Both the position numbers and the translations under genes were made by a program. Shown here piece by piece: positions 935 to 24,809 of a DNA stretch of 35,448 nt. The stretch spans positions 1-35,448 of the forward strand of contig JAOUFA010000003.1 in assembly GCA_029858545.1 (NCBI GenBank), read 5' to 3'. Each line of letters opens with the position of its first letter. The stretch's first letter is position 1. The stretch is from Betaproteobacteria bacterium. Its GTDB lineage: Bacteria > Pseudomonadota > Gammaproteobacteria > Burkholderiales > SG8-39. The notes under the pieces were generated by a model that made no database searches, had not been told where the DNA came from, and worked only from the letters and a program-made list of their open reading frames with translations.

Positions 935-2569
935 ATGGGCGAAGCCCACCCGGTCGAGAGCTGGGATTTCATCGTCGTCGGTGCCGGCTCCGCGGGCTGC
1001 GCGCTCGCGGCGCGGCTGAGCGAGTCCGGCGCGCATCGCGTGCTGCTCGTCGAAGCCGGCGAGGACGATCGCTGGATCTGGTTGCGCATCCCGACCGGCG
1101 TCGCGCGCGTGCTGGTCGGAGAGCGTGCGGTCTGGCGCTTCCAGACCGAGCCCGAACCGGGGCTCGGCGGCAGAACGATCTTCTGTCCGCGCGGGCGCGT
1201 GCTCGGCGGAACCGCGGGCGTCAACGGCATGTTCTGGGTCTGGGGCTATCCTGCGGTGTTCGACGCCTGGCGCGCGGCCGGCAACACGGGCTGGGGCTAT
1301 GACGAGGTGGTGCCCCTGCTGCGGCGCATGGAAGCCTACGCGCGCGGGGATCCCGCGCGCCGCGGCCGGTCCGGGCCGCTCGCCGTCACCGCCTACGCGC
1401 CGCGCGACCCGCTCACCGACGCGTTTCTCGCGGCCTGCACGCAGGCCGGCATTCCCGAGAGCACCGACTACAACGCCGACGGTTGCGAAGGCGCCGGCGT
1501 GATGCAGTTCTCGACGAAGCGGGGGCTGCGCTGGGGCGTGCGCGAGGGTTACCTGCGGCCGGCGATGAAGCGCGGCAACCTGCGGGTGCTGACCGGCGCG
1601 CGCGCGACGCGCGTGCTCCTCGAGGGGGGCCGCGCGACGGGGGTCGAGATCCGGCACGGCGAGCGCCTGATCGCGCTGCGCGCGGCACGCGAAGTCGCGC
1701 TGTGCGCGGGCGCGTTCCAGTCGCCGCAGCTGCTCGAACTCTCGGGGATCGGCGATGCGCGCGTGCTGCAACGCCACGGCATCGAGGTGAAGCAGCCCCT
1801 CCCCTCGGTCGGCGAGAACCTGCGCGATCACTTGCAGGCGCGCGTCATGTTCGAAGCGCGCGGACTGGCGACGCTCAACGACATCCTGCCCAGCTTCTGG
1901 AAGAAGGCGAGGATGGCGCTGCGCTACGCGCTCTTTCGCGACGGCCTGATGAGCGTGCCGGGCGCGACCGCGCACGCCTACGCGCGGCTCGACCCGGCGA
2001 GCGCCCAGCCCGACGTCAAGCTGCAGTTGCACCATCTGACGAGCCCCGACGAGCGCAATCCGAAGCGCGTGCTGCTCGATGATTTCCCCGGCTTTTCGAT
2101 CGGCGTCGTCCAGCAGCAACCGGCATCGCGCGGCAGCGTCCACCTGCGCTCGGCCGATCCGTTCGATGCGCCGGAGATCCGCGCGAACTTCCTGTCGGCC
2201 GAAGAGGACCTGCGCGCCGTGATCGAAGGCGTGCGCCTCGCGCGGCGCGTGGCCGCGCAACCCGCGCTCGCGCGCTTCGTGGTACGCGAGGTGAGGCCCG
2301 GTCCGGGCTCCGCGTCCGACACGGAACTCGCCGACTACCTTCGAAGCACCATCTTCGGCTCCTACCACCAGGTGGGCACCTGCCGCATGGGCGCCGATGC
2401 CGACGCCGTGGTCGATCCGCGCCTGCGCGTGCGCGGCGTGGCGGGGCTGCGCGTCGCCGACGCGTCGGTGCTGCCGTCGATTCCGGCGTCGAACACCAAT
2501 GCCGCGGCGGTCCTGGTCGGCGAAAAGGCCGCCGAGCTGATGCTCGCGGACGCGAGGTCGGTCGCGTGA
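935..2569 (+). CDS. GMC family FAD oxidoreductase (choline dehydrogenase-like)
   Basis: DFIVVGAGSAG FAD motif, RGRVLGG..VNGM, SPQLLELSGIG, VGENLRDH, YHQVGTCRMG, LRVADASV, NTNA; GGAG just upstream of the ATG. Confidence 0.92.
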   Translation: MGEAHPVESWDFIVVGAGSAGCALAARLSESGAHRVLLVEAGEDDRWIWLRIPTGVARVLVGERAVWRFQTEPEPGLGGRTIFCPRGRVLGGTAGVNGMFWVWGYPAVFDAWRAAGNTGWGYDEVVPLLRRMEAYARGDPARRGRSGPLAVTAYAPRDPLTDAFLAACTQAGIPESTDYNADGCEGAGVMQFSTKRGLRWGVREGYLRPAMKRGNLRVLTGARATRVLLEGGRATGVEIRHGERLIALRAAREVALCAGAFQSPQLLELSGIGDARVLQRHGIEVKQPLPSVGENLRDHLQARVMFEARGLATLNDILPSFWKKARMALRYALFRDGLMSVPGATAHAYARLDPASAQPDVKLQLHHLTSPDERNPKRVLLDDFPGFSIGVVQQQPASRGSVHLRSADPFDAPEIRANFLSAEEDLRAVIEGVRLARRVAAQPALARFVVREVRPGPGSASDTELADYLRSTIFGSYHQVGTCRMGADADAVVDPRLRVRGVAGLRVADASVLPSIPASNTNAAAVLVGEKAAELMLADARSVA

Positions 2570-4878
2570 GCCCGGCGCAGCCGCGCGGCAGGCTCGAGGA
2601 CGAACGGCTCCTGACCGGTGCCGGGCGCTACGTCGCCGACCGCTCCCTGGAAGGCCAGGCGTGGGCGCACTTCCTGCGCTCGGACCGCGCGCATGCGCGC
2701 ATCGTGTCGATCGACGCGGCGCGCGCGCGCGCGTTCCCGGGCGTGCTCGCGATCCTGACCGGAGAGGATGTCGTCGCCGCGGGGTTTCGTTCCCTGCCCA
2801 CGCTCATGCCGGTCAAGGGGCGGGGCGGGATGGCGCTCGCCGCCGCGCACCGCCCGGTGCTCGCGCTCGAGCGCGTGCGTTTCGTCGGCGAGCCGGTGGC
2901 GATCGTCGTCGCCGAGACGCGCGAGGCCGCGCAGGACGCGGCCGAGCTGATCGAGCTCGAGTGGGAGGAACTGCCCGCGGTCGTGCGCGGCGCGCAGGCG
3001 CTCGAGCCGGGCGCGCCGCTCGTGCACGCGGACATCGCCGGCAATCTCGCCTTCGACTTCGAGGCCGGCGACGCGGCCTCGGTCGAGGCCGGGTTCGCGC
3101 GCGCGGCGCGCCGCGTGCGCAGGGAAATCGATATCACGCGCGTGGTGGGCAATCCGATGGAGCCGCGCGGCGCGATCGGCGTGTACCGGGAGGACCGGGA
3201 CGGCACGGGGAGCGAGTGGACGCTCTACGCCTGCACCCAGGGCCCGTACCACATGCGCCAGCAGCTCTCGCAGGTGCTCGGCGCCCCGCTCGATCGCATC
3301 CGCCTCGTCGCCGAAGACGTGGGCGGCAGCTTCGGCGTGCACAGCAACATCTACCCGGAGGATTGCGCGGTCCTGCTCGCCGCGGCGCGCGTCGGCCGCC
3401 CGGTGAAGTGGGTGGCGAGCCGCTCCGAGACCTTTGTTTCCGACGAGCAGGGGCGCGACGTGCTCGCGACCGGCGAGCTCGCGCTCGACGCGAGCGGGCG
3501 CATGCTCGGCATGCGCTTTGCATGGGTGTCGAACCTCGGCGCGTACCCGACGCTGATCGGGCCGCTCGCCAACACGCTGGGCGCGAGCGCCTGTCTGTCC
3601 GGCGTGTACGACGTTCCGGCCTGCGTCCGCGCGCGGCTCGCCTACTCTCACACCGTTCCGACCGCCTCGTACCGCGGCGCGGGCCGGCCGGTGATGTCGT
3701 ACCTGATCGAGCGCCTGGTCGACGAGGCGGCCGCCGAGACCGGACTCGATCCGGCCGAGCTGCGCGCGAAGAACCTCGTTGCCGCGAACGCCTTTCCCTA
3801 CCGCGCGTCGAACGGCACCACCTACGATTGCGGGGACTTCCAGGCAGTGCTGCGCGGGGCGATGCAGGCCGCCGACTGGGCCGGCTTCGAGGCGCGCCGA
3901 CGCGCCTCCGAGTCCGCGGGACGGCTGCGCGGGCGCGGCATGGCGTGCTTCATCGAAGCCTCGGGCGCGGGCTTCATTCCTTCGGACCAGGTGCAGCTGC
4001 GCTTCGGCGCGAACGGCACGGTGACCCTGCGCACCGCGACGCATTCGCACGGCCAGGGGCACGAGACGAGCTTCGCGCAGATCGTCGCGTCGGCGCTGGG
4101 CGTGCCGATCGATCGGGTGCGGCTCGCGACCCCGGATGCCGAAGGTCCGCAGCTCACCGGCAACCTCACGAGCGGATCGCGCTCGCTCGCCGGGGTCGGA
4201 AGCGTGCTCCTGCTCGCGGCGCGCGCGGTCGTCGACAAGGCGCGGCCGCTCGCGGCGGCGGCGCTCGATGCGCCGGCCGGCGAGCTGGAATTCGCGGACG
4301 GCGCGTTCCGCGCCGGCGGCCGCGCGATCGGCATCGCCGAGCTCGCCGAGCGTCATGCGCGCGAAGCTCCCCACCCGCTCGACCTGGATTTCGAAGGCAA
4401 ATTCGGCGCGACCTTTCCCAATGGCTGCCACGTCGCCGAAGTCGAGATCGATCCGCACACCGGGGAGGCGCGCGTCGTCGCCTATACCGCCTGCGACGAT
4501 ATGGGCAGGATCGTCAACGAGGCGATCGTCGAGGGGCAGGTGCACGGCGGCATCGCGCAGGGCGCGGGCCAGGTGTTCGGCGAGCAGGCGGCATACGACA
4601 CGCATACCGGCCAGCTCGTCACCGGCAGCTTCATGGACTATGCGATGCCGCGCGCCGATCTGGTTTGCCGGCCGCGGCTCGTCGCGAGACCGGTGCCGAC
4701 GAGCGCCAATCCGCTCGGCGTGAAGGGCGCGGGCGAGGCCGGTACCACGGGCTCGCTGCCGGCGCTGATGAACGCGGTGTGCGACGCGCTGCGCGCGCGC
4801 GGGGCGGAGCGTTTCGACATGCCGGCATCGCCGGCACGGCTGTGGCGCGCGCTGCGGGACGCAACTCCGCGCGATTGA
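2566..4878 (+). CDS. Xanthine dehydrogenase/CoxL-family molybdopterin-binding large subunit
   Basis: RLEDERLLTGAGRYVAD, PMEPRG, EDVGGSFG, SYRGAGRP, HGQGHET, EGQVHGGIAQG, NPLGVKGAGEAG. GTG start overlaps the GMC stop (GTGA). Confidence 0.92.
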   Translation: MSPAQPRGRLEDERLLTGAGRYVADRSLEGQAWAHFLRSDRAHARIVSIDAARARAFPGVLAILTGEDVVAAGFRSLPTLMPVKGRGGMALAAAHRPVLALERVRFVGEPVAIVVAETREAAQDAAELIELEWEELPAVVRGAQALEPGAPLVHADIAGNLAFDFEAGDAASVEAGFARAARRVRREIDITRVVGNPMEPRGAIGVYREDRDGTGSEWTLYACTQGPYHMRQQLSQVLGAPLDRIRLVAEDVGGSFGVHSNIYPEDCAVLLAAARVGRPVKWVASRSETFVSDEQGRDVLATGELALDASGRMLGMRFAWVSNLGAYPTLIGPLANTLGASACLSGVYDVPACVRARLAYSHTVPTASYRGAGRPVMSYLIERLVDEAAAETGLDPAELRAKNLVAANAFPYRASNGTTYDCGDFQAVLRGAMQAADWAGFEARRRASESAGRLRGRGMACFIEASGAGFIPSDQVQLRFGANGTVTLRTATHSHGQGHETSFAQIVASALGVPIDRVRLATPDAEGPQLTGNLTSGSRSLAGVGSVLLLAARAVVDKARPLAAAALDAPAGELEFADGAFRAGGRAIGIAELAERHAREAPHPLDLDFEGKFGATFPNGCHVAEVEIDPHTGEARVVAYTACDDMGRIVNEAIVEGQVHGGIAQGAGQVFGEQAAYDTHTGQLVTGSFMDYAMPRADLVCRPRLVARPVPTSANPLGVKGAGEAGTTGSLPALMNAVCDALRARGAERFDMPASPARLWRALRDATPRD

Positions 4879-4931: not shown

Positions 4932-5087
4932 ACGGATAGGGAAATCAATGCGCCTCGAAAGTCTGAACAGCTTGCCTGCGCACGACAATCCCGCGCTGGA
5001 ACGCGCCCTGAGCGGTCTGCAATGCGCATTCTGTCAATCTCGCTCCATGACACCCGCCCGAAGAGGGCGATTGGAGCAGAGTCTAGT
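4932..5087. repeat. 156-bp direct repeat, copy 1
   Basis: ACGGATAGGGAAATCAAT...GGAGCAGAGTCTAGT. Ungapped manual alignment gives 11 differences to copy 2 and 18 to copy 3. Confidence 0.97.
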
Positions 5088-5293
5088 GGTAAGGAAGCGC
5101 GGCGTCTGAGGATGTCGTCCGGCGGCGACCATGGAATGCGAATCGCCACGAATACGGAGTGTAACGATGCGCAGTCCATCAGCAGCGCTGTCAAAGATTG
5201 TCATCGCTCCTGAGTACCCGCGCTCAGGTTCGTCTTGCGTGCTATTTATCCCAGCTCAATTTTTTCCCCCGCTGGATCGAACGGAGAACGCAA

Positions 5294-6076
5294 ATGAGCA
5301 TGGCAAGGCGAGCAATGATCGTGGTGGGAGCGGCCTGGGCGCTGCTCCCCGCGGCGCAGGCGCAAACCCTCGAAGTGTCGGGCGCGACCACGGTGCAGAA
5401 ACGCATTCTCGAACCCGGTGCGGAAGGCTTCAAGGCCGCGACCGGGATCGAGCTGAAGATCTACGGGCCCGGCACGGGCAAGGGCATGCTCGCGCTGCTC
5501 GAGGGCAAGGTTCCGGTGGCGGCGGCCGGCGAGGCGCTCGTGGACGCGATCGGCTCGGCGAAGAAAGCCGCCGCCGACGCCGGCAAGACGGTGAGCATTC
5601 CGTCCAACCTCATGTATCACACGGTCGCCTCAGACGACATCGTGGTGGTGGTGCACACGGGCAACCGTGTGAAGTCGCTCACCAGGGCGCAGGCCAAGGC
5701 GATCATGACCGGCAAGATCAAGAACTGGAAGGAAGTGCACGGCGCCGACCTGCCGATCAAGGTGGTCGCCGCGGCGCCCGGCCAGGCGGTGCGCAATGCG
5801 GTGCAGAAGGGACTGATGGATGGCGAGGAGTTCGGTCCCGGCACGGCCGACATCCGTACCGCGCTCGAGCAGTTGCGCGTGGTCGGCTCCAACCCGGGTG
5901 CGATCGGCGCGATGAGCGAGCCGGTGGTCAAGGAAAGCAACGAGAAGGTGAAAGCCGTCGCGGGCGTGCGCGTCGGCCGGCCGCTCGGCTTCGTGACCGT
6001 CGGCGCGCCCAACGCGAGCGCGCAGAAGCTCATCGATTTCTTCCATTCGCCGGCCGGCAAGAAGCTGATCAAGTAG
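5294..6076 (+). CDS. Secreted substrate-binding protein, PstS/PBP_like_2 type
   Basis: Signal peptide ending AAQA, then LEVSGATTV, GPGTGKG, IVVVVH..N.V..LT, I.TGKIKNWKEV.G.D.PI and NPGAIG, all typical of PstS-like proteins. GGAG precedes the ATG at 5294. Confidence 0.85.
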   Translation: MSMARRAMIVVGAAWALLPAAQAQTLEVSGATTVQKRILEPGAEGFKAATGIELKIYGPGTGKGMLALLEGKVPVAAAGEALVDAIGSAKKAAADAGKTVSIPSNLMYHTVASDDIVVVVHTGNRVKSLTRAQAKAIMTGKIKNWKEVHGADLPIKVVAAAPGQAVRNAVQKGLMDGEEFGPGTADIRTALEQLRVVGSNPGAIGAMSEPVVKESNEKVKAVAGVRVGRPLGFVTVGAPNASAQKLIDFFHSPAGKKLIK

Positions 6077-6105
6077 CGCCACGCCTCGGCCAACGGAATC
6101 GCGTG

Positions 6106-7767
6106 ATGCTCACAAACCTGCGCGTAGGTGTGCGCCTCGGGCTGGCGTTCGGAACGCTGCTCGCGATGATGCTCGCCATCGCACTCATCGCCTGGTTCGC
6201 CCTCGGTCAATCCACGCTGCGCATTGACAATCTCGCCAACCGCGACCTGGGACGGCTCAGCGCGGCCGCCAGCATGGAAGTGGCACAGCTCACCCAGTCG
6301 GTCGCGATCCGCGACTTCGTGAGCGACGCCGACGTCGCGGCGCAAAAGCGCGCGCGCGAGCGCCTGACGCGCGGCCAGCAGACCTACGCAGACTCGGCGC
6401 AGTGGCTTGGCGAGCTCGCCAAGCAGACTTCCAACGCCGAGCTCACTGCGCTCGCCGACAAGCTGCGAGCCACGCAGGACAAGGTGGCGCAGCAGATCGG
6501 TATCGCGATCGACATGGTCGACAATGCCCAGTACGAGGAAGCGCGGCAGCACGTATTCCGGACCGTCGGCCCGCTGCAGACGCAGATCACCGAGGAGCTG
6601 CGCGCTCTCGCGGCGGCGAGCCACGCGCAGGCCGAGCGCACCGCGAACAACGCGCGCGACGCCTCGCGCGGCGCGGCCGCCTACATGATCAGCGCCATCC
6701 TTGCCGCCCTGTTGCTCGGCGCCGCGGCAACCTGGTGGCTGACGCACAGTATCACCCGACCGCTCAACGCGGCGGTCGCTGCCACCGAGCGGATCGCCGC
6801 GGGCGACCTGACCGGCGATATCCCGCCCGGCTCGGGGGACGAGACCGGGCGCGTGCTGGCGGCGCTCGCGCACATGAAGGCGAATCTCCACGAAGTCGCG
6901 GCGCGCATCCGCTCGGGCGCCGAATCGATCTCCCGCGCCTCGAACGAGATTGCGAGCGGCAATGACGACCTGTCGCACCGCACGGAGGAGCAGACTTCGT
7001 CGCTCGAGGAAACCGTTGCCAACGTCGAGGAGCTGACCGCGACGGTGCGGCAGAACAGCGACAACTCCAAGCGCGCGAGCGAGCTGGCGCTGCGCGCCGC
7101 CGGCGCCGCGGAGCAAGGCGGCAAGATCGTCGGCCAGGTGGTCGAGGCAATGAACGGCATGCACGCCACCTCGGGGCGCATGGCGGATATCGTCGGCGTC
7201 ATCGACGGCATCGCCTTCCAGACCAACCTGCTCGCGCTCAATGCCGCGGTCGAGGCCGCGCGCGCGGGCGAGCAGGGCAAGGGCTTCGCGGTGGTCGCCA
7301 CCGAGGTGCGTGCGCTCGCGCAACGCAGCGCCGAGGCGGCCAAGGAAATCCGCGGCCTGATCGGCGGCAGCATCGACCGGGTGCGCGCGGGCGCGCAGCT
7401 CGCCGACCAGGCGGGCACGGCGATCGGCGAGATCGTCCTCACGGCGACCGAGGTCTCGAACGTGGTGGCCGAAATCTCGAGCGCGAGCGCCGAGCAGCGC
7501 ACGGGCATCGAGCAAATCGGCCAGGCGATCACCCACATGGATGACATCACGCAGCGCAACGCCGCGATGGTCGAGGAGACGGCCGCCGCGACCGGCGCGC
7601 TGCGCGATCAGGCCGCGGGACTGCTTGAAACGGTCGGGTCGTTCAGGCTCGACCAGGCGGCCCAGGCGCCCGCAGCGCCCGAGCGTGTCCCCGCACCCGC
7701 CCCGCAGAGGCAGCCCGCCCGACTCGCGCCGCGCGCGGGCGACCTGCTGCCCCTCGCGGCGCGCTGA
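6106..7767 (+). CDS. Methyl-accepting chemotaxis protein (TM, periplasmic helical sensor, TM, HAMP, signalling domain)
   Basis: LRVGVRLGLAFG TM1, second TM then SITRPL/GDLT/DETGRV HAMP, and IDGIAFQTNLLALNAAVEAARAGEQGKGFAVVATEVRALAQRS hairpin tip. True start is about 6103/6106, not 5131. Confidence 0.93.
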   Translation: MLTNLRVGVRLGLAFGTLLAMMLAIALIAWFALGQSTLRIDNLANRDLGRLSAAASMEVAQLTQSVAIRDFVSDADVAAQKRARERLTRGQQTYADSAQWLGELAKQTSNAELTALADKLRATQDKVAQQIGIAIDMVDNAQYEEARQHVFRTVGPLQTQITEELRALAAASHAQAERTANNARDASRGAAAYMISAILAALLLGAAATWWLTHSITRPLNAAVAATERIAAGDLTGDIPPGSGDETGRVLAALAHMKANLHEVAARIRSGAESISRASNEIASGNDDLSHRTEEQTSSLEETVANVEELTATVRQNSDNSKRASELALRAAGAAEQGGKIVGQVVEAMNGMHATSGRMADIVGVIDGIAFQTNLLALNAAVEAARAGEQGKGFAVVATEVRALAQRSAEAAKEIRGLIGGSIDRVRAGAQLADQAGTAIGEIVLTATEVSNVVAEISSASAEQRTGIEQIGQAITHMDDITQRNAAMVEETAAATGALRDQAAGLLETVGSFRLDQAAQAPAAPERVPAPAPQRQPARLAPRAGDLLPLAAR

Positions 7768-8462
7768 GCAGGTTCAGCCCGTCGCGCCGCGCGCGCGCTT
7801 CCATTTCGCGCCGCAGGGCGACCGCACTGCTTGTGCCGTCGAGCGCGACATCGCCCCAGCCGATCGGCTCGCCTGCCGCCACCGCGCACAGCAGCTTACA
7901 GCCCTGCGCGAGACCGAGCGGCAGGCAGCCTCGCGCGAGCGAGTCGGCCGCCGGCATCAGGCGGCCCACGACCGTGTAGCCGCCCTCGCCATCGAGCAGT
8001 TCACCCGCATTGAGATCGCGCTTGGCGGTCGCGACCGCATCGGCGCCGAATCGGGTCGCGCAGCCGGTCGGCTCGCCGCGCAGGCCCACCGACGCCACCG
8101 ATATGCCGACCTCGAGCCCGATCAGGTGCCAGCGCTTGTAGAGGCACGCGTAGCGCCCGCTCGGGTCGGTCTTCACGCCGTACTCGGCGAAGCAGCGCCG
8201 GATGTACTCGGTCTCGCCCTCGAACACCACCCACACACCGAAGCGGATATCGTGGGGAATGGCGCGTCCGTCGCGCTCCAGCGAGGAGATCACCTCGACC
8301 TGCCCCTTGTGGTGCAACTGCCCGCCCTCCTCGCGCGGCCGCATGACGCACGGAATGTCGTCCACCGTCGCCGGCCGATAGGCGAGTCCCCACGGCGCGG
8401 GCGTGAGGCCGGTGGCATTGCACACCGCGGCGCTCTCGATCGCCGGCTTCGAGCCGTCGAGG
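7643..8462 (-). pseudogene. C-terminal half of an NAD(P)-dependent oxidoreductase with SAF domain (homoserine dehydrogenase-like family), 5'-truncated at repeat copy 2
   Basis: LDGSKPAIESAAVCNATGL, YKRWHLIGLEVGISVA, DAVATAKRDL.AGE.LDGEGGYTV and LPLGLA are motifs of this family. No N-terminal Rossmann part is present; the family-like sequence stops at the repeat boundary near 8463. Confidence 0.8.
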
Positions 8463-8618
8463 AGAGATAGGCAAATCAATCCTACCCTGAAGTTTGAACA
8501 GCTTGCCTGCGCACGACAATCCCGCGCTGGAACGCGCCCTGAGCGGTCTGCGATGCGCATTCTGTCAATCTCGCTCCATGACACCCGCCCGAAGAGGGCG
8601 ATTGGAGCAGAGTCTAGT
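8463..8618. repeat. 156-bp direct repeat, copy 2
   Basis: AGAGATAGGCAAATCAAT...GGAGCAGAGTCTAGT. Positions 33-156 differ from copy 1 at one base only. Confidence 0.97.
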
Positions 8619-8687
8619 TTGTTGAGCCCGGGCAGGCAGTGGCGGCGAAGGACCTGCTCGCCGAGCCGGATTGATTTTCCTATCCCT
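8463..8687. mobile_element. Possible 225-bp MITE-like unit bounded by 20-bp imperfect terminal inverted repeats
   Basis: 8463-8482 AGAGATAGGCAAATCAATCC matches the reverse complement of 8668-8687 (AGGGATAGGAAAATCAATCC) at 18/20. No convincing target-site duplication. Confidence 0.45.
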
Positions 8688-8792
8688 GGATGGCATGATC
8701 GCCATGACCCACGCATGAACGTCCGACCTGTCCGATCCGCCGCGGTCCTGCGGACCATGCAGCGCTGGGCCTGAAACCGGAGAACCCCAGCC

Positions 8793-9254
8793 ATGACCAA
8801 CCGCAGCAAGGCATTTCACGTGTCGCCGACAAATCCGGCAGTCGGCGAGATCCAGACCGAACCCGAGCGTTATCAGGACATGCCCTATGCGCCGGCCATC
8901 CGCGTCGAGGGCGGCGATCTGCTCTTCATCTCCGGGGCGACGCCTTCGCCGCTATACCACAAGCATCCGCACGTGATCTCCGAGCATGAGCATCCCAACG
9001 GCATCAAGGAACAGGTACGCCGGGCAATGAATACGGTACAGAACATCCTGAAGCATGAGGGTCTGGCGTGGACCGACGTCGTCAAGATGACAAAGTACCT
9101 GACCGACATGCGCGACATGGACGGCATGAACGAGGTGCTGCCCGAATATCTCAAGAACTGGCGGCCCGCCAGCACCACGATCTGCGTCAATCAACTTTCG
9201 ACACCCGGTGCCCGGGTCGAGATCGACGTCATCGCCGCCTTTCCGAAGTCCTGA
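8793..9254 (+). CDS. Rid (YjgF/RidA superfamily) protein
   Basis: YAPAIRV, LLFISG, DVVKMTKYLTD, PAST, ARVEIDVIA; GGAG upstream of the start. Confidence 0.88.
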   Translation: MTNRSKAFHVSPTNPAVGEIQTEPERYQDMPYAPAIRVEGGDLLFISGATPSPLYHKHPHVISEHEHPNGIKEQVRRAMNTVQNILKHEGLAWTDVVKMTKYLTDMRDMDGMNEVLPEYLKNWRPASTTICVNQLSTPGARVEIDVIAAFPKS

Positions 9255-9330
9255 CCCGGCAGGATCCCCGCGTTCGTTGCCGCGCCGTACCGCCGGTCGT
9301 TCCGGGACCGCGCGATAGTGCGCGCAGACG

Positions 9331-11244
9331 CTACCGGACGAGTACCGTCGAGAGAATCGGAAGCGCAGCGACCAGGATGGTTACGGCCATCATCGTGAGC
9401 ACAAAGGGTATCGTGCCCTCGAATATCTCGCGCAGATTCGTGAAGTTCTTGGGCAACGTGCTGTTGACGACGTAGACCGAGATTCCGAATGGCGGGGTCA
9501 GTAGCCCGATCTCGACGCTGATCGTGGTGAGTATCCCGAACCATACGAGATTTCCGCCCAAGGCGGTCACGATCGGCAGCATGACCGGCAGCACCATCAG
9601 CATGATCGACACCGAGTCGAGAATCGTGCCCAGCAGCACGACGATCAGCAGGTAGATCGCCAGGAAGGCCGGCAGGCCCAGCCCCGCTTGCGACACCAAG
9701 TTGGCCGCATAAGTCGGGATGCCCGAGAGCGCCAGCATTCGGCTGTAGAGCGCCGCAGCGATGATCAGGAACAGTATGGCCCCCGTGACGAGTCCCGCCT
9801 CGACCAGGACCTTGGTGAACTCGGAGCGAGGCAGTTTGCGCCGCGCAATCGCGATGACCAGCGCGCCGGCGGCTCCCACGGCACCCGATTCAGTCGGCGT
9901 CATCACCCCTCCGTAGATTCCCCCGATTACGACAACGATCAGCACTAGCATCGGCAGCAGGGCAATCAGCGACGCACGCACCGGCATGTTCGGGATTTCC
10001 GCGATCGCCTTGGGATTGCCGACAAAGCGCGGCCATGTCTTCGCAACGAAGGAAATCATGCCCATGAAGGCGGCTGCGAGGAGCAATCCTGGGATGATCG
10101 CGGCAATGAACAGCTTGCCGATCGAGACCTCAGAGACGAGACCGTAGATGATCAGCAGCAGGCTCGGCGGTATCAGCATGCCCAGCACGGAACTGCCGGC
10201 GACGGTTCCGACCGAAAACCGCCTCGAGTAGCCGTGATCGACCATTTCCGGCACTGCAACGCGGGCGAATACCGTCGCCGAGGCGATCGACGACCCGGTG
10301 ATCGAGGCGAACAATGCGTTGGCCAGGACCGTCGCCATTCCCAAGCCGCCGCGAACGCGCCGCAGCAGCGACGCGGCGACGGCGAACGCGTCGCGCCCGA
10401 CTTCCGCCTTCTCGACCAGCAGCCCCATCAGCACGTAGAGCGGAATCACGGCGAAATCATAGGAGCTGATCGCATTCGAGGCCGCAAGCCCGACCGCGTT
10501 GACCGCGATCGTCTCACTGCCGCGGACCAGCCAGATGCCGATGAACGACAGCACGAAGAGTGCGGTGCCGATCGGCATGCCTGCCAGGAGCAGAACAAGC
10601 ATTCCCAGGACGGAAATCGCGCCTATCTCGGTCGGCCGAAGGTGGCCGAGGAAATTCACGCCGATATAGGCAAGAATCAGGATGGCGAGCGCCGCGAGCG
10701 CGATCCAGCCCAGGCGGTTGCTTGATTCCGGCCGGCGATCGGCTGCGCGTCGTGCGGCGATGCCTTTCACGTGCGCGGCTGCCATGGCAACGAAGCTGAG
10801 TGCGGCAAACGCCGCGCCGATTACGACCGCAAGCTTGAACGGCCAGACAATGACCGCATACGCGCCCTCGACCCCGGCAAACTCAGCAGTACGGATTGCG
10901 CCCAGAAGATCGGGGACCGTCCACAGCAGGACGACCCCGAATACGGTGATACCGGCGAGGGCGAACAGCAGGCCGTAGAGGTGGCCGGCGAACGCAGCCC
11001 GCTGCTCGATGACGCGCAGGATCAGGTCGGCATGAATCATGCGGCCGGCGCGTATGACCTGCGGCAACTGCAGAAAAACGAGGCACGGCACGCTCAACGC
11101 GACGAGTTCCGGCGTCCTCTGGATCGGCGTGTTGAACAGCGCACGGCCCGCGATGTCGCCGCAGATCAGCAGCATGATTGCGAAGATCCACAGCGAACCG
11201 AGCGCAGACAGCGCGGCGGTCAGCGCGGAGAAGGCGCGCGTCAC
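9331..11244 (-). CDS. TRAP transporter fused small+large permease (DctQM)
   Basis: N-terminal DctQ-like 4-TM part (DIAGRALFNTPI, IHADLI), then DctM motifs (VIPLYVLMG, GGLGMATV, SITGSS, GMLIPPS, GGIYGGVMTPTES, GLLTPPFG). Confidence 0.92.
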   Translation of the reverse strand: MTRAFSALTAALSALGSLWIFAIMLLICGDIAGRALFNTPIQRTPELVALSVPCLVFLQLPQVIRAGRMIHADLILRVIEQRAAFAGHLYGLLFALAGITVFGVVLLWTVPDLLGAIRTAEFAGVEGAYAVIVWPFKLAVVIGAAFAALSFVAMAAAHVKGIAARRAADRRPESSNRLGWIALAALAILILAYIGVNFLGHLRPTEIGAISVLGMLVLLLAGMPIGTALFVLSFIGIWLVRGSETIAVNAVGLAASNAISSYDFAVIPLYVLMGLLVEKAEVGRDAFAVAASLLRRVRGGLGMATVLANALFASITGSSIASATVFARVAVPEMVDHGYSRRFSVGTVAGSSVLGMLIPPSLLLIIYGLVSEVSIGKLFIAAIIPGLLLAAAFMGMISFVAKTWPRFVGNPKAIAEIPNMPVRASLIALLPMLVLIVVVIGGIYGGVMTPTESGAVGAAGALVIAIARRKLPRSEFTKVLVEAGLVTGAILFLIIAAALYSRMLALSGIPTYAANLVSQAGLGLPAFLAIYLLIVVLLGTILDSVSIMLMVLPVMLPIVTALGGNLVWFGILTTISVEIGLLTPPFGISVYVVNSTLPKNFTNLREIFEGTIPFVLTMMAVTILVAALPILSTVLVR

Positions 11245-11300
11245 GATGCCGGCAGGTCAGAGAGCCAGCCGCGCGAGGGGCGCGACTGGCTGCAAGAAGA

Positions 11301-12386
11301 TCAGAGTCCCTCGTCCCAGTTACGCAGCGGCTTGGCGCCGCGCGCGCGCATTTCCGTCATGAACGACTTCATGATGTCGGCAGCGGGTATTCCCTTCGCC
11401 GAGTTGGACGCGACGAATTCCTTGCTGACGTTGCCCATGGCGTCTATCCAGCGCTTGCGGTCTGCTTCCGAGAGTGAGCTGATCTTGGATCCGGCAGCCA
11501 CCATGGCATCGATCGACCCCTTGACCCGCGCTTTGACTTCCTTGGCGTGGACGGTCGAATACTCGCGGCCCAGTTTGCCAAGGACCGCCTTGACGTCAGG
11601 GGGAAGTTTCTTCCAGGTGTTGCCGTTGGCGGCAAGGCCGCCGATCGTCGTCACGCCCAGGTCGACGAGCGTGATGTACGGGGCGACTTCAAAGAGCTTG
11701 AAGGAGTAGGCGCCCGTGGAGATGATAAGCGTCCCGTCGGCCACCCCGGTCTGGAGCATCTGGTAATAGGCAGGCAGACCGGCTGCCACCGGGGTCGCAC
11801 CGATCGCCTTTAGCCACGTCGCATGGGCTGTTCCGGCCACGATCTTCTTGCCCTTCAAATCGTCCAGCGACTTGATCGGGAATTTGGTAAACAGATGGTA
11901 GGTATCGGATACCGTCGCGCCAAGAAATACGAGATTGTGCCTGGTCCACTCGGCCTGCATTGCCGGTACCGTATCATTCAGCTTGTTCATCACGTCGATG
12001 GCGATTTCCTCGTCGCTGGTGACGAACGGCGTGGCGAACATGATGTTCTGCAGCGGCAGCTTTGCCGGCTCCCACAGCGCACCGACCCAGCCCATGTCGG
12101 ACACGCCTTGTGCCAGGGGTTCGAGCGTGTTGTTGAAGTTGTACAGCACGCCGCCGAAGGCCTCGTTCCATTCAATTCGATAGTTGCTCTTCGCCGCCTC
12201 GAGCCGCTTGTTGCTCTCGGCAATGACGTGAGTCTTGAGGGCGCCCACCCAGGGTATGCTGGTCGGATGGCTCGAGGACATCGTCAGGCGGATGGTTTCC
12301 ACCCCGGCCGCTGCGGTAGCAAGCCCGAGCATGGCAGCGCCCGCCATTGCAGCGGTAAATCGGAGGTGTTTCCGTGAAGCGATCAT
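11301..12386 (-). CDS. TRAP transporter substrate-binding protein (DctP family)
   Basis: Signal peptide, GVSDMG, PIKSLDDLKGKKI, GATPV, YQMLQTGVADG, WKKLPPDVK. Start taken at ATG 12386, which has AAAGGGG upstream. Confidence 0.9.
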   Translation of the reverse strand: MIASRKHLRFTAAMAGAAMLGLATAAAGVETIRLTMSSSHPTSIPWVGALKTHVIAESNKRLEAAKSNYRIEWNEAFGGVLYNFNNTLEPLAQGVSDMGWVGALWEPAKLPLQNIMFATPFVTSDEEIAIDVMNKLNDTVPAMQAEWTRHNLVFLGATVSDTYHLFTKFPIKSLDDLKGKKIVAGTAHATWLKAIGATPVAAGLPAYYQMLQTGVADGTLIISTGAYSFKLFEVAPYITLVDLGVTTIGGLAANGNTWKKLPPDVKAVLGKLGREYSTVHAKEVKARVKGSIDAMVAAGSKISSLSEADRKRWIDAMGNVSKEFVASNSAKGIPAADIMKSFMTEMRARGAKPLRNWDEGL

Positions 12387-12422
12387 AGGGTACCCCTTTG
12401 CGTATGTGATACGGACCACTGC

Positions 12423-12451
12423 ATTATGTGCGGCCAGCCGCAAAATCACAA
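12423..12451 (-). promoter_or_regulatory. Putative sigma70 promoter for dctP-dctQM
   Basis: Minus strand TTGTGA-N17-CATAAT, ending 36 nt upstream of the dctP ATG. Confidence 0.45.
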
Positions 12452-12510
12452 CGGCGCTGGCGGCTACCGAGTACGCAGCTATCGGGCGCGACGCGATTGC
12501 CCGGGATGTC

Positions 12511-12666
12511 ACGGATAGGGAAATCAATGCGCCTCGAAAGTCTGAACAGCTTGCGTGCGCGCGACAATCCCGTGCTGGAACGCGCCCTGAGCGGTCTGCG
12601 ATGCGCATTATGTCAATCTCGTTCCGCTACGCCCCCCCGAGTGCCGCCATCGGAGCAGAGTCTAGT
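12511..12666. repeat. 156-bp direct repeat, copy 3
   Basis: First 44 nt are identical to copy 1. It diverges mainly in positions 112-141, and has the same length and the same GGAGCAGAGTCTAGT end. Confidence 0.97.
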
Positions 12667-12731
12667 AGCAAGTCGGATCGCGCTTGTCTGCGTACCCGGC
12701 GCAACACCCGGCAGCAAATCAACGCCCCGAA

Positions 12732-13679
12732 TCAGGCCTCGATCAGCGCCTCCAGCACCGCGCACCACGCCACCGAAAGATTCTCCAGACTGTAGCCCCC
12801 GCCGCCGAACGCCATCAGGCGCCCGCGCGCATGACGCTCGGCCAGCGCGAGCGCGCGATGCGTGACCTGCGCGTGCGCGGTGGCGCTCAGGCGCAGGTCG
12901 GCAAGCGGATCGCCCGCGAGCCCGTCGGCTCCGCATTGCAGGATGAAGAACTCGGGCGCGTGCGCGTCTAGAAAGCGTTCGGCTTCTTCCCAGGCACGAA
13001 AGAATTGCGCGTCGTCCGCACCGGGCCGCAGCGGCAGGTTGAGCTTCGTGCCCTCGGCCGCGCCGCGCCCGGTCTCGTGCGCGTGACCGGTGCCGGGATA
13101 GAGAAAACGCCCGTCCTGGTGGATGTCGGCGACGATCAGCTCGGCATCGTCCTCGTACTCGTAGAACACGCCGTCGCCGTGGTGCACGTCGATGTCGATG
13201 TAGGCGATGCGCCGGATGCCGTATTCCGATCGTAACGTCTCGATCAGCACGCCCAGGTCGTTGAATACGCAGAATCCCGCCGCCGCGCCGCGCCGTGCGT
13301 GGTGCAGGCCGCCGACCGGCTGGAAGCTGCGGCGCGCCTCGCCCGCCATCACGCGGCGCGCACCGTCGAGCGCGGCGCCGACCACCTGCGCCGCCGCTTC
13401 ATAACAACCTGGAAAAGCAGGCGTGTCGCCGCCGTCGAGATAGCCCTCGCCGCGCCGCGAGGCCTCGATCACCTCGTCAATGTAGTCGGCGTGGTGAAAG
13501 CGCTCGATCTGTGCGCGCGTCCCCTGAGGCGCCTCGACCACCAACGCGCGCTCGATCAGGCCACGCGCTCGCGCCGCATCAACGAAAGCGCCCTGGCGAT
13601 CGACCGACAGCGGATGCCCCGCGGGAAAGCCGTAGCCGCCGAGTTGCTCGCCGACGAAGAGATGGGTCGCGCGATTCAT
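12732..13679 (-). CDS. Zn-dependent histone deacetylase family protein (AcuC-like)
   Basis: GGLHHA, GFCVFND, DIDVHHGDG, GADGLAGDPL and GGGGY are intact. ATG at 13679 overlaps the upstream stop (ATGA). Confidence 0.92.
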   Translation of the reverse strand: MNRATHLFVGEQLGGYGFPAGHPLSVDRQGAFVDAARARGLIERALVVEAPQGTRAQIERFHHADYIDEVIEASRRGEGYLDGGDTPAFPGCYEAAAQVVGAALDGARRVMAGEARRSFQPVGGLHHARRGAAAGFCVFNDLGVLIETLRSEYGIRRIAYIDIDVHHGDGVFYEYEDDAELIVADIHQDGRFLYPGTGHAHETGRGAAEGTKLNLPLRPGADDAQFFRAWEEAERFLDAHAPEFFILQCGADGLAGDPLADLRLSATAHAQVTHRALALAERHARGRLMAFGGGGYSLENLSVAWCAVLEALIEA

Positions 13680-15787
13680 GCGCCGCCGGCGCGCTCCACC
13701 TCGACGAGACAATCGTAGAAGGTCGCGCCCCCGCCCAGGTCGGCGACGCGCTGCGAGGTGACGTCGTTCGCATTGCGCCCGTCGGGCGAGAACTTCTTCC
13801 ACCACACCGAGGGCGCGACCACCACGCCGCGGCGCGGCTTGCCGTCGACCTGCGCGCGCAGCGTGTAGCTGCCGCGATCGTTGAACACGCGCACCGCGTC
13901 ACCGTCGGCGATGCCGCGCGCGGCGGCATCCTCCGGGTGCATCTCCAGGCGCGGTTCCTTCTCGAAATCGCGAAAGCGCTTCAGGTTCGCGAAGGTCGAA
14001 TTGAGGAAGTGGCGCGCGGGCGGCGAAATGAAGGAAAGCGGATACCTGCGCGCGAGCGCCGTGTTGCTCGCGACCGATTCGGCGGGCGGATTGAAGAAGG
14101 GCAGCGGATCGATGCCCTGCTGCGCGAGCCAGTCGCTGCGGAATTCGCACTTGCCCGAGGGGCTGGGAAAGCCGCCCTGCGCGAAGGGCGCCGAGCGCTC
14201 CGGGACCGGCAGGCGCTGCCAGCCCGCCTGCTTCGCCTCGTCCCAGGAGATGCCGCGCATGCGCGGACTCGTCGAGACGAGCGCCTGGCGGCACAGGTCC
14301 TCGTCCGTATCGCGAAAGCAGGGTTCGTCGAACCCCATGCGCGCGGCGAGGCGCCGGAACACCTCCGTATTGGGCAGCGACTCGCCCACCGGCGCGATTG
14401 CAGGGTTGTTGGCGAGCACGTAGAGATGCCCGTAGGACTTGTGCACGTCGAAATGTTCCAGCTGCGTGGTCGCCGGCAGCACGATGTCGGCGTAGTCCGC
14501 CGTGTCGGTGAGGAACGAATCCATCACCACGCAGAACAGATCCTCGCGCGAGAAGCCGGCGATCACCTTGTTCGAGTCGGGACAGACCGCGACCGGATTG
14601 TTGTTGTAGACGATCACCGCGCGGATGGGCGGCGTCGACGAGGTAAGCGCATCGCCGATCGCCGACTGGTTGACGATGCGCGGCACCCTGCCACCGAGCA
14701 GGTCGGGCCGCTCGAGCGTTGCGTGGTCGAAGGCGTAGAAGTCGCCGGTCGAGAGCAGCACGCCGCCCGCCGCCTCGCGCCAGGCGCCCACCAGCGCCGG
14801 CAGACAGGCGATGGTGCGCGCGGCGATGCCCCCGCCCGCGTGGCGCTGCATGCCGTAGTTGAGCCGGATCGCCGCCGGACGGATCGTGCCGTAGTCGCGC
14901 GCGAGCTGCACGATCTCGGCGACCGGAAGCGCGCAGATCTTCGCCGCCCACTCGGGCGTGTACTGCTTGACCCGCTCGGCGAGTTCGTCGAAGCCGAGCG
15001 TGTGGCGCGCGATGTAGTCGCGGTCGATCAGGTTCTCGGCGACGAGCACGTGCATCATGCCGAGCGCGAGCGCGCCGTCGGTGCCCGGCAGCGGCGCGAT
15101 GTGCTGCGTGCACTTCTCCGCCGAGAGGCTCCGATAAGGATCAATGGCGATGACCTTCGCGCCGCGGCGCTTCGCCTCCTGCACGCGCGACCACAGGTGC
15201 AGGTTGGAGACGATCGGGTTGGTGCCCCACAGGAGGATCAGTTTCGAATCCTCGAAACACTCGGGGTCCATGCCGACCGAGGCACCGAGCGTCGCCTTGA
15301 TGCCGGCCTTGCCCGCCGAGGAGCAGAGCGTGCGATCGAGCAGCGTCGCGCCCAGGCGGTGAAAGAAGCGCCGGTCCATCGAGCTGTACTGCGCCATGCC
15401 CATGGTGCCGGCATAGCTCATCGGCAGGATCGTCTGCGGCCCTTCGTCGGAGGCGGCGAGCGCCTTCAGGCGCGCGGCGATCTCGCCGAGCGCCTCGTCC
15501 CAGGAAATGCGCTTGAATTCGCTCCTGCCCTTCGCGCCGACGCGCTTGAGCGGATGCAGCAGCCGGTCGGGCGCATAAGTACGTTCGAGGTAATGCGACA
15601 CCTTGGTGCACAGCGTGCCGTCGGTGAAGGGCATCGCCGGATCGCCCTTGATCTCGATCGCGCGGCCGTCCTTCACCGTGACCAGCATCGCACAGGTGTC
15701 GGGACAGTCGTGCGGGCAGGCGGCGTGCACCACCTTTCTGTCAGTGTCCTGCGGTTTCAGTGCGCTGGCGGTGTGCGGTGCGTTCAT
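13676..15787 (-). CDS. Molybdopterin (Mo-bisPGD) oxidoreductase with N-terminal 4Fe-4S motif
   Basis: CPHDCPDTC...LCTK, RLLHPLKR, ISWDEAL, WGTNP, PGTDGALALG, TDTADYADIVLPA, FLNSTF, MHPEDAAARGI.DGD.VRVFNDRG. Confidence 0.92.
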   Translation of the reverse strand: MNAPHTASALKPQDTDRKVVHAACPHDCPDTCAMLVTVKDGRAIEIKGDPAMPFTDGTLCTKVSHYLERTYAPDRLLHPLKRVGAKGRSEFKRISWDEALGEIAARLKALAASDEGPQTILPMSYAGTMGMAQYSSMDRRFFHRLGATLLDRTLCSSAGKAGIKATLGASVGMDPECFEDSKLILLWGTNPIVSNLHLWSRVQEAKRRGAKVIAIDPYRSLSAEKCTQHIAPLPGTDGALALGMMHVLVAENLIDRDYIARHTLGFDELAERVKQYTPEWAAKICALPVAEIVQLARDYGTIRPAAIRLNYGMQRHAGGGIAARTIACLPALVGAWREAAGGVLLSTGDFYAFDHATLERPDLLGGRVPRIVNQSAIGDALTSSTPPIRAVIVYNNNPVAVCPDSNKVIAGFSREDLFCVVMDSFLTDTADYADIVLPATTQLEHFDVHKSYGHLYVLANNPAIAPVGESLPNTEVFRRLAARMGFDEPCFRDTDEDLCRQALVSTSPRMRGISWDEAKQAGWQRLPVPERSAPFAQGGFPSPSGKCEFRSDWLAQQGIDPLPFFNPPAESVASNTALARRYPLSFISPPARHFLNSTFANLKRFRDFEKEPRLEMHPEDAAARGIADGDAVRVFNDRGSYTLRAQVDGKPRRGVVVAPSVWWKKFSPDGRNANDVTSQRVADLGGGATFYDCLVEVERAGGA

Positions 15788-15835
15788 CGCGTCCTCAAGC
15801 CGGATTCTCCATGGTATCGACCGATCCCGCCATCT

Positions 15836-17092
15836 TCATTCGAGCGCTTCGTCGAGCAATTCGATCCAGTGTCGGACCGGCGTATCCGTCGCCGCCTGCA
15901 GGTGCGCCAGGCAGCCTATATTCGCCGTGGCGATCTGGGCAGGCTCTCCGAAGCGCAGCGCGGCGAGTTTCCGCGTGCGCAGCAGGCCCGACAATTCGGG
16001 CTGAAGAATGGAATAGGTCCCCGCCGAGCCGCAGCACAGATGCCCCTCCGACACCGGCGTCAGTTCGTATCCCGCACCGGCAAGCAATCCCTCCACCACG
16101 CCGCGTATCTTCTGGCCGTGCTGCAGCGAACACGGCGACTGAAAGGCGAGTTTGCCGCGCCGCGCGCCCTTGACGAGCAGCGGCTCAAGCGCCGCCGCGT
16201 GGTCGGCGACGATCTCCGACAAATCGCGCGCCAGCGCCGCGACGCGCGCCGCCTTGTCGCGGTAGGCGGGGTCGTGCGCGAGATAGCTGCCGAATTCCTT
16301 CACCGTCGAGCCGCAACCGCTCGCGGTCATCACGATCGCCTCGAGCACGCCGTGTGCGGCGGCCTTTTCAGCGTCTCGCTCAACCATCGGCCACCAGCTG
16401 TCGATCAGCGCACGCATGTCGGCCAGGCCTCCGTCCTGATCGTTGAGGTGGTAGCGCACGGCGCCGCAGCACCCCGCCCCGGAGACTTCGACGAGCGAAA
16501 TCCCGACGCGATCGAGCACGCGCGCCGCGGCCGCATTGATGTTGGGCGCGAGCACCGGCTGCACGCAACCGGCGAGCGCGATCACCTTGCGCGCGTGGCG
16601 CGCCGCGGGCCGCGCACCCGCGGCCGCGCCGCGCGGCGGCACCTTCTCCTTCAACGCACGCGGCAGCAGCGGACGCAGTGCCTGCCCAAGCTTCAGCGCG
16701 GCGCCGAAAACGGCCGTGTTGGGCAGCGCCCAGGCAAGCAGCGCACGCCGCGCGCGCTCCCACGCAGAGCGCGGCGCGCGTTCTTCGACCACCCCGCGTC
16801 CGATATCGGCGAGGCGCGCATACTGCACGCCCGAAGGACAGGTGGTCTCACAGGCGCGGCAGGTCAGACAGCGATCGAGGTGCAGGCGCGTCCTCGCGGT
16901 GACGGGCTTGCCTTCGAGCACCTCCTTGATCAGGTAGATGCGCCCGCGCGGTCCATCGAGTTCGTCGCCGAGCAACTGATAGGTCGGGCAGGTCGCGGTA
17001 CAAAAGCCGCAGTGCACGCACTTGCGCAGGATCGCCTCGGCCTCCGCCCCTGCGGGCGTGCCGCGCATGAAATCAGCGAGGTCAGTCTGCAT
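15836..17092 (-). CDS. glcF: Glycolate oxidase iron-sulfur subunit
   Basis: MQTDL...CVHCGFCTATCP, ELDGPRGRIYL, CLTCRACETTCPSGV and two CCG domains (CCGA, CCGSAGTY); glc context. Confidence 0.95.
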   Translation of the reverse strand: MQTDLADFMRGTPAGAEAEAILRKCVHCGFCTATCPTYQLLGDELDGPRGRIYLIKEVLEGKPVTARTRLHLDRCLTCRACETTCPSGVQYARLADIGRGVVEERAPRSAWERARRALLAWALPNTAVFGAALKLGQALRPLLPRALKEKVPPRGAAAGARPAARHARKVIALAGCVQPVLAPNINAAAARVLDRVGISLVEVSGAGCCGAVRYHLNDQDGGLADMRALIDSWWPMVERDAEKAAAHGVLEAIVMTASGCGSTVKEFGSYLAHDPAYRDKAARVAALARDLSEIVADHAAALEPLLVKGARRGKLAFQSPCSLQHGQKIRGVVEGLLAGAGYELTPVSEGHLCCGSAGTYSILQPELSGLLRTRKLAALRFGEPAQIATANIGCLAHLQAATDTPVRHWIELLDEALE

Positions 17093-17150
17093 TGTTCAAA
17101 CCCCGTGCCGGACACTATAGTGGCGGGCATCGACCCTATCGCACGCGACC

Positions 17151-17963: not shown

Positions 17964-17975
17964 CGCGCCACGCGC

Positions 17976-19040: not shown

Positions 19041-19044
19041 GCGC

Positions 19045-23366: not shown

Positions 23367-23510
23367 AGCCCCGCGCCCGCCGCGTCGTGCTCCGGCCGGC
23401 AGGCCAAATCCCCAATCACTGAGCGGATAACAAGTCCAATTCCGCTGTGTTAGACTTTTTGCCCTTCGGCGGGTTCAAGTCGCCAACATAATCAAAAAAG
23501 GAGGCCTTCA

Positions 23511-24790: not shown

Positions 24791-24809
24791 CACTTGCTTC
24801 CGCGTAGAT

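Follow-up and report, generated by a model that had tools for sequence, protein, structure and literature searches.

Repeats that bound gene modules in an environmental betaproteobacterial contig are probably miniature IS91/ISCR-type elements

The stretch of DNA considered here, referred to as the window, is contig C398 (35,448 nt) of a metagenome-assembled genome (MAG) of a Betaproteobacteria bacterium (3.93 Mb in 589 contigs, 88% complete, 6.8% contamination), and the elements in question are three direct repeats within it, R1, R2 and R3, together with the gene modules that they separate. To the left of R1 lie a molybdenum-containing hydroxylase (Mo-hydroxylase) and, also by Pfam, a GMC oxidoreductase; a first module, with a binding protein, a methyl-accepting chemotaxis protein (MCP) and a broken oxidoreductase gene, separates R1 from R2, a second, with a Rid protein and a TRAP transporter, separates R2 from R3, and to the right of R3 are a deacetylase and, again by Pfam, a molybdopterin oxidoreductase (coordinates are collected in Table 1). 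An original prediction, made from the sequence alone, had named the Mo-hydroxylase, solute-binding protein, MCP, Rid, TRAP and deacetylase genes, and Pfam confirms each of these calls. It had gone on to see in the layout an unclassified, repeat-mediated system of gene accretion, served by an enzyme in trans.

Table 1 Features of the window around the repeats (IS, insertion sequence)
Feature	Position	Strand	Basis or remark
Mo-hydroxylase large subunit, left neighbour	2566..4878	+	Pfam
R1, probable miniature IS91-family element	4932..5093	-	IS sense (ter to ori) on minus strand
Module 1: PBP_like_2 binding protein, MCP and broken oxidoreductase gene	5094..8462	.	Pfam, G+C, DNA search of relatives
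PBP_like_2 binding protein	5198-6076	+	Pfam
MCP	ends 7767	+	Pfam
DRL_cat/SAF oxidoreductase 3' fragment, ~218 aa	7814..8463	-	DNA search of relatives and frame analysis
R2, probable miniature element, other left-end subtype	8463..8618	-	Repeat search and copy alignment
Degenerate inverted partial copy, ori part only, ~60 nt	8627..8685	+	Ends ...GGATTGATTTTCCTATCC, then CTGG
Module 2: Rid and TRAP transporter	8686..12510	.	Pfam, G+C
Rid (Ribonuc_L-PSP)	8793-9254	+	Pfam
DctQM, fused	9331-11244	-	Pfam
DctP, as listed frame	11301-12608	-	Pfam
R3, probable miniature element, mosaic	12511..12673	-	Repeat search and copy alignment
Deacetylase, right neighbour	12732-13805	-	Pfam; stop 58 nt from R3

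A repeat search of the window gives a single family of three direct, ungapped copies, at 4935-5087, 8466-8618 (94% identical) and 12514-12666 (88%), and when these are aligned with 50-nt flanks the similarity starts and stops abruptly, the flanks themselves being unrelated; both results agree with the three ungapped, sharp-ended direct repeats originally described, in their coordinates also. Pairwise, R1, R2 and R3 differ at 6-12% of positions, and chance is excluded by BLAST E-values between the copies of 1e-41 to 1e-63. Comparison with copies elsewhere in the genome extends the right edges of R1 and R3 by some 6-7 nt, to 5093 and 12673 (...CTAGTGGTAAGT); the true right end of R2 is 8618, this (ter-side) end being shorter and without GGTAAGT. 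Directly after R2, tail to tail with it, lies the degenerate inverted copy of Table 1, which may be the reason why R2 is without the usual GGTAAGT end. The original statement that the window holds no further copy is correct for copies detectable by BLAST, but not for this one.

Searched with the 156-nt sequence, the MAG as a whole yields 17 matches, to which a more sensitive BLAST adds three weaker partial ones; the family can be put at ~20 BLAST-detected copies, or about 20-25 in all, with 76-99% identity and distinct subtypes. Alignment of all copies gives a full unit of ~163 nt, from (AC)GGATAGG to CTAGTGGTAAGT, with left, middle and right subtypes mixed as mosaics among the copies, while three partial copies share about one end position, at ~52. 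More than half of the BLAST-detected copies (11 of ~20) are on just three contigs, C398, C315 and C154, which make up 89.6 kb of the 3.93 Mb. At least two copies are found on each of six contigs (C398 3, C154 3, C315 5, C431 2, L034 3, L035 3), two of these six loci being one site in two strains, and every neighbouring pair of ori-bearing copies on them (13/13) is co-oriented. Many other copies are at contig ends, and the overlap between contigs C154 and C11 consists of exactly 127 identical bases inside a copy. Relative to the neighbouring genes the orientation of the repeat is mixed, and GC skew taken in the orientation of the repeat is small and of mixed sign, supporting a link with the replication strand neither way. 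Searches further afield found the family in none of 40 relatives, in none of 185,579 species genomes (using two exact patterns) and in no plasmid; five pattern matches in viral contigs were all chance ones, of at most 36 nt. Among sequencing runs, one from sediment contains a fraction of 0.96 of the sampled words and may be the source sample, and two from soil and one from groundwater contain 0.21-0.28, figures that bear on neither habitat nor alternative alleles.

What the family is can be judged from the genes that run up to it. Among the frames reaching repeat edges that were scanned with Pfam, C11:213-959(-) matches Y2_Tnp; it lies directly to the right of a copy, reads towards that copy, and comprises the natural C-terminal ~225 aa of a gene truncated at its 5' end. 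A recombinase, HUH or DDE gene adjoining a copy had been named in the original prediction as something to look for, and this Y2 HUH match is a case of exactly that kind. Y2_Tnp (PF04986) has two matches in the whole 3.9-Mb genome, C11:528-827 and C315:21087-21383, both on contigs that carry the repeat, with 95% identity between the two over 126 aa. The C11 frame also matches NF033538, 'IS91 family transposase', with an E-value of 5e-13; its score falls short of the cut-off for full-length proteins, as that of a fragment would. Further transposase pieces are present at L034:1301-1527 (52% identical, 60 nt from the ori edge of the copy L034M) and at C315:32136-32251. A protein search across the order (300 genomes) found full-length IS91/ISCR transposase genes of 509-535 aa, the C11 transposase being only 28-34% identical to them, and in three of these full-length relatives the motif TTCCTAT(A/C)C occurs 219-242 nt past the stop codon; on C11 the stop is 87 nt from the repeat, and a further ~165 nt brings the terminus to ~252 nt downstream. 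The left end of the repeat (read on the reverse strand, for R1-R3) aligns with the tails of IS91/ISCR elements of other genomes (L052, L056, L060, L061 and L062), and T.CCTAT is invariant within the resulting consensus, (G/A)TTGA(T/A)TT(T)CC(C)TAT(C/A)C. Of these, L060 encodes a 519-aa protein that scores 1144.8 bits against the NCBIfam model 'ISCR element clade Ia' (the L059 and L060 loci being identical over their whole 3597 nt). Judged from these alignments, the repeat appears to correspond to the final ~165 nt of the non-coding tail downstream of such a transposase gene, with its low-coordinate end, on the minus strand, as the oriIS terminus.

The description of the system as unclassified does not survive this comparison, given an IS91/ISCR oriIS terminus on the repeat and Y2 HUH transposase relics on its contigs. 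Other parts of the original prediction fare better: no enzyme is encoded in the copies themselves, and hence any movement would indeed have to be served in trans, and Pfam scans of 20 window frames (four others, at 31793-34996, being outside the scan) agree that the window contains no integrase or transposase. Two side observations concern stray pieces of the same kind. At C315 32007-32251, a 115-nt piece of transposase 3' coding sequence lies beside a 123-nt piece that is 82% identical to window 12717-12839 (the region of the deacetylase 3' end), which hints that flanking DNA of the R3 site has been copied elsewhere. Contig C385 (L065) carries at 895-1115 a solo ori-like terminus (...GATTGAATTTCCTATC) that is outside the 163-nt family and adjoins a 170-nt gene 3' fragment, 89% identical to the end of a 712-aa frame at C154:718-2856.

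IS91-family elements are described as having distinct oriIS and terIS ends that are not inverted repeats, as making no target duplication, as inserting beside CTTG, GTTC or GTCC adjoining oriIS, and as carrying subterminal palindromes (PMC13181058). More than 20 copies of the present repeat, inspected with their flanks, show neither terminal inverted repeats nor target duplications, and the two ends of the repeat are unrelated. The terminus is followed by C/G-T-T/C-N in 17 of 21 independent copies, as against 0.11 expected by chance, for a motif defined post hoc; three of the four exceptions read GTGN. In R1, for example, the reverse strand reads ...GCATTGATTTCCCTATCC up to the terminus and then GTTG, and in R2 the left end reads ...GATTGATTTGCCTATC, then T, then CTCC. 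A hairpin (CTCGCTCCA...TGGAGCAGAG) lies 14-16 nt from the ter-side edge, with the same fold in 10 of 17 copies and the outer arms retained in four more; there is one compensatory change, of A-T to G-C, in R3. On the transposase-sense strand the ter-side edge reads xAAC in most copies. The want of inverted ends and duplications is a trait given for IS91, IS801 and IS1294, and the tetranucleotide, the hairpin and the xAAC edge may be counterparts of further such traits (PMC13181058). According to the same account, transposition needs only 89 + 82 bp of the ends, and termination fails in 1-14% of events, with the result that adjacent DNA is carried along (PMC13181058), while a second places oriIS 167 bp downstream of the coding sequence and reports IS91 'gene cassettes' and circular intermediates (PMC5737581). 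For IS801, right-end fragments of 229, 360 and 679 nt with a left-end-like tetranucleotide boundary are reported to transpose in vivo, the element itself carries neighbouring DNA, and most genomic fragments are held to reflect reorganisation and to serve as homology for rearrangement (PMC3189936).

That the repeats stand at joints between unrelated DNA, as originally claimed, is borne out in several ways. The G+C content is 0.70-0.76 to the left of R1 and 0.59-0.65 (mostly 0.59-0.64) between R2 and R3. On the right, a block that runs from the gene at 23511 to the deacetylase, which is its first gene, has the same order in four relatives, and in all four synteny stops at the deacetylase, i.e. 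at R3; further along, the genes of the relatives are ones that this MAG has on other small contigs. On the left, the Mo-hydroxylase may itself be cargo, because its best relatives are only ~60% identical and are located elsewhere in their genomes. Almost no syntenic match in relatives exists for contig C315 (39 kb, five copies). At R2 the joint cuts a gene: DNA search of relatives reveals an 80%-identical stretch that stops exactly at 8463 and is the C-terminal part of a DRL_cat/SAF oxidoreductase, the gene being 5'-truncated exactly at the R2 ori terminus (this is the 'gene fragment' of the original prediction), and its N-terminal half was not found in the assembly. Broken genes are also present at the ori edge of L035a, where an NMT1_3 binding protein is without its C-terminus (profile 14-204 of 289), and of L036, where there is the C-terminal end of an ABC ATPase. 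In none of these three cases does the missing half of the gene lie across the unit, and therefore the ter-side DNA would either have travelled with the ori end (one-ended transposition) or have been exchanged later. As a side observation, the window at 21579-31730 carries ordinary core-type genes by Pfam (sulfate permease, isocitrate dehydrogenase, a ClpA-type ATPase and a flavocytochrome c sulfide dehydrogenase subunit), with no mobile-element genes among the frames scanned there.

Evidence that the array changes comes from co-occurring strains. One scan of metagenomes with the repeat returned C154 and three unbinned contigs of the source metagenome. Contig L034 matches the two sides of R3 in its flanks, at 98.8% (173 nt) and 94.6% (130 nt) identity, and between these flanks, in place of the single copy, are three copies and ~9 kb of additional genes (Sel1-repeat, CMD, an unknown gene, a GGDEF cyclase and DUF4156), for which the MAG has no match except a 528-nt stretch on C467 (82% identity). 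The left part of R3 resembles the L034 copy on the DctP side and its right third the copy on the deacetylase side, with further switches of parentage in between and a few variants of its own. Since R3 is in this way a mosaic of the outer L034 copies, the L034 and C398 alleles belong to two co-occurring strains and differ by recombination within the repeat, and the mosaics and this pair of alleles show that recombination between copies does reshape the array. Different cargo at the same locus, which the original prediction had thought worth seeking, is present here as extra modules at the R3 site. At L036 there is a different left neighbour, joined via a copy to C11 DNA. Another strain-level difference was noted between C431 (L021) 100-560 and C520 (L025) 5912-6165, which have a common left flank and degenerate copy, with a 159-nt insertion in the right part of the copy.

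Some of the cargo on other contigs may be mentioned in passing. C315 (L018) has between two copies, at 5582-14386, a gene for a 2934-aa protein with GH94 and glucoamylase domains (cyclic beta-1,2-glucan synthase type), the stop codon of which is 19 nt from one of the bounding copies; and at 14560-19087, again between two copies, a low-G+C (0.52-0.60) module with a methyltransferase, a desaturase-like gene and an OmpR-type/TPR regulator. In cargo between two copies on C154 (L020), at 5765-6979, is a 404-aa ECF-type sigma factor with a long N-terminal extension.

The reading that best accommodates these observations, and one that can be held with reasonable confidence, is that the repeats are ~163-nt non-autonomous miniature derivatives of an IS91/ISCR element, the modules between them having probably been assembled by one-ended transposition and by recombination between copies. 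The Y2 relics and the oriIS terminus make a gene-capturing IS family, together with recombination, the better explanation of the site-cargo-site layout. In mechanistic terms, a Y2 transposase acting in trans would nick at oriIS and displace a strand towards the other end; early stops would yield units of 163 nt, while read-through (one-ended transposition) would drag neighbouring DNA along, so as to insert an ori unit plus cargo next to C/G-T-T/C-N sites. Co-oriented copies would then offer homology for RecA-type recombination, by which modules could be joined, swapped or deleted. As to which process was mainly responsible for joining the modules in the window, recombination between copies is given a little under an even chance, one-ended transposition somewhat less than that, and any other process a small share. 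Because there is no intact transposase in the assembly, the array may by now be fossil, with recombination as its only source of change.

All this said, a number of points weigh against this reading. The transposase pieces are fragments, with NCBIfam scores under the full-length cut-offs, and the genome has neither an intact transposase gene nor a match to Zn_Tnp_IS91 (PF14319), with the proviso that, the MAG being 88% complete, one may be missing. On C11 the 87-nt spacer ends in an ori-like stretch, and the adjoining unit could have been inserted separately next to an older ori rather than being the tail of the IS itself. The tetranucleotide motif was defined after the data had been viewed, the G/C-T that follows the terminus tracks subtype (CGT as against N-CT) and may belong to the element itself and not reflect a preferred target, and agreement with the published tetranucleotides depends on the strand on which these are written. 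Several switches of parentage within R3 fit homologous recombination better than they do a single transposase-made joint. Co-orientation and clustering are not a documented habit of the IS91 family, and might be accounted for by the movement of composite pieces (which would need co-oriented ends), by a strand bias of single-strand insertion or by insertion beside resident units; moreover, two short degenerate fragments, window 8627-8685 and L034:5038-5108, are inverted.

Of the other explanations that need to be weighed, the nearest accepts the IS91-family miniatures but supposes that they were inserted singly into a variable accessory region, with no carriage of cargo, the module differences arising from ordinary homologous recombination between direct repeats. 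The multi-switch mosaic structure of R3 and the subtype mosaics among other copies speak for this, as does the lack of an intact transposase in the genome, and in the case of IS801 the published conclusion is that genomic fragments mostly reflect reorganisation and provide homology for recombination (PMC3189936). However, simple insertion of a 163-nt unit is insufficient for cut genes the other half of which is in no case (3/3) beyond the unit, and 13 co-oriented neighbouring pairs out of 13 are not what separate insertions would be likely to produce; this explanation is on balance unlikely, if still a serious competitor. A more far-reaching proposal, which must be regarded as distinctly doubtful, is that the units are working sites of a Helitron-like, trans-served platform for gene capture, in which a Y2 HUH enzyme adds an ori unit and captured DNA beside resident units. 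Were it true, it would explain both co-orientation and clustering, through the building of a strain-variable array of multi-gene sensing and uptake modules, and bacteria would have in it a cassette platform of a third kind, alongside integrons and IS26 arrays.

The reading originally advanced was of a new site-specific recombination system, with an att- or attC-like site of 156 nt at which a recombinase in trans would add circular cargo at a fixed crossover. It would be suited by the alternation of site and cargo, the common orientation of the copies, the additional modules that the strain variant has between its copies, and the three partial copies that end near ~52, but the repeat end is an IS91/ISCR oriIS beside Y2 transposase relics, the three tyrosine recombinase genes in the genome (Phage_integrase) are all on contigs other than the repeat contigs, the whole unit forms no stable hairpin (fold z-scores of -0.01 and +0.09) and the mosaics show no single crossover point, all of which makes it very improbable. 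What stands of the original interpretation as a whole is that the joints are real, that service would be in trans and that the sites are neither attC nor dif; what does not is the unclassified accretion system. Assembly error across a repeat is a natural worry in a bin of 589 contigs, many of which end in the repeat and two of which (C154 and C11) overlap by exactly 127 nt. It is hard to credit here, though, as the window copies differ by 6-12% and R3 has variants present in neither L034 copy, and would have needed reads of its own, while the flanks of L034 and of the window are slightly different, as would be expected for two strains. A structured RNA, or a regulatory module (promoter or leader) copied before several operons, might be suggested by the local hairpin and by the position of R1 and R2, 111 and 175 nt upstream of genes on the same strand; with no Rfam match at gathering scores (a single one at chance level, E 5.3), fold energies equal to those of shuffled sequences on both strands, a consensus fold of -6.84 kcal/mol in which 0 of 10 pairs are compensated, and a mixed orientation to neighbouring genes, it deserves scarcely any weight.

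Several further candidates were considered and rejected. An integron cassette array is excluded by the lack of an attC hairpin, of R''/R' boxes and of a nearby integron integrase, and the original prediction had correctly dismissed attC: inspection finds no RYYYAAC/GTTRRRY ends, there is no whole-site hairpin, and Phage_integrase matches are only on other contigs. It was likewise right to find no complete dif site in the repeats: a scan with a dif consensus has its only dif-like hits on C387 and C525 and none in the repeats, which disposes of Xer/dif modules (IMEX, pdif). The sites on C387 (~155 nt from one end) and C525 (at 6020), each with one perfect XerD-arm-like half and near a contig end, may be the chromosome dif and a second site, or belong to two strains. 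A classical miniature inverted-repeat transposable element (MITE) derived from a DDE transposon would require the terminal inverted repeats and target-site duplication that are lacking. A small protein is not indicated by the 49-codon frame that passes through the repeat, the differences falling on second codon positions and one copy having a 1-nt insertion. As for tRNA-linked island accretion, aragorn finds 38 tRNAs and one tmRNA, none on a repeat contig; an IS110 parent is opposed by the absence of Transposase_20 matches in the genome, and an IS200/IS605 parent by the fact that Y1_Tnp has just a single weak match, the contig being an unrelated one.

The IS91/ISCR elements owe their reputation mainly to the resistance and virulence genes that they move in clinical bacteria, and observations of their transposase-less miniatures come chiefly from a single trapping experiment. 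In the present case a miniature would have multiplied in an uncultured environmental bacterium, and is present at nearly every joint of a strain-variable accessory stretch, the cargo of which includes a chemoreceptor, binding proteins, a TRAP transporter, a diguanylate cyclase and a cyclic-glucan synthase. This offers a natural case in which to weigh one-ended transposition against recombination between dispersed ends in the building of flexible genome regions. It also carries a warning: where no enzyme is close by, 'orphan cassette arrays' may turn out to be IS91-type relics, of a kind that standard IS and MITE finders miss because they have no inverted ends, no duplications and no gene.

Comparison with known systems may begin outside the IS91 family. 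Integron arrays, those without an integrase included, resemble the present one in having co-oriented repeats of ~100-160 nt between unrelated cargo and an enzyme in trans, but the repeats have no attC-type hairpin of the whole site, no R''/R' boxes and no integron integrase nearby, and their cargo is multi-gene and on both strands. IS26 translocatable-unit arrays contain directly oriented copies with cargo between them, and are built both beside resident copies and by recombination; unlike the repeats, however, IS26 is a DDE element with a transposase in every copy. Non-autonomous Helitrons of eukaryotes depend on a rolling-circle HUH Y2 enzyme, and their short, transposase-less derivatives multiply and capture pieces of genes by read-through; any kinship with the repeats would be one of mechanism alone, Helitrons being eukaryotic.

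Closer to hand, ISCR, IS91 and IS1294 share with the repeats an oriIS motif ~0.2-0.25 kb downstream of a Y2 HUH gene and, it may be, a tetranucleotide beside oriIS, and are described as capturing adjacent genes by one-ended rolling-circle transposition, with 'gene cassettes' and circular intermediates reported (PMC13181058, PMC5737581). In contrast to these, the transposase here is represented by fragments only, of 28-34% identity, and the cargo, in an environmental MAG, consists of sensing, uptake and catabolic genes rather than resistance genes. The closest parallel is with the IS801 miniatures of Pseudomonas syringae pv. phaseolicola, which, as described, likewise lack a transposase, retain the ori (right) end only and are without inverted repeats, which have, as may be the case here too, an inner boundary at a tetranucleotide like that of the left end of the IS and are moved in trans, and whose parent IS801 carries neighbouring DNA and supplies homology for rearrangement (PMC3189936). 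That account gives strain 1448A no copies of the 679- or 360-nt fragments, and it lists two copies of the 229-nt form in one replicon (PMC3189936). Here, by contrast, the unit is of ~163 nt, there are about 20-25 copies, clustered and co-oriented with modules of 3-12 kb between them, and no intact parent was found. The repeats add to the known IS91/ISCR miniatures, from which they stand apart in their unusually high copy number and in their array-like link to strain-variable cargo.

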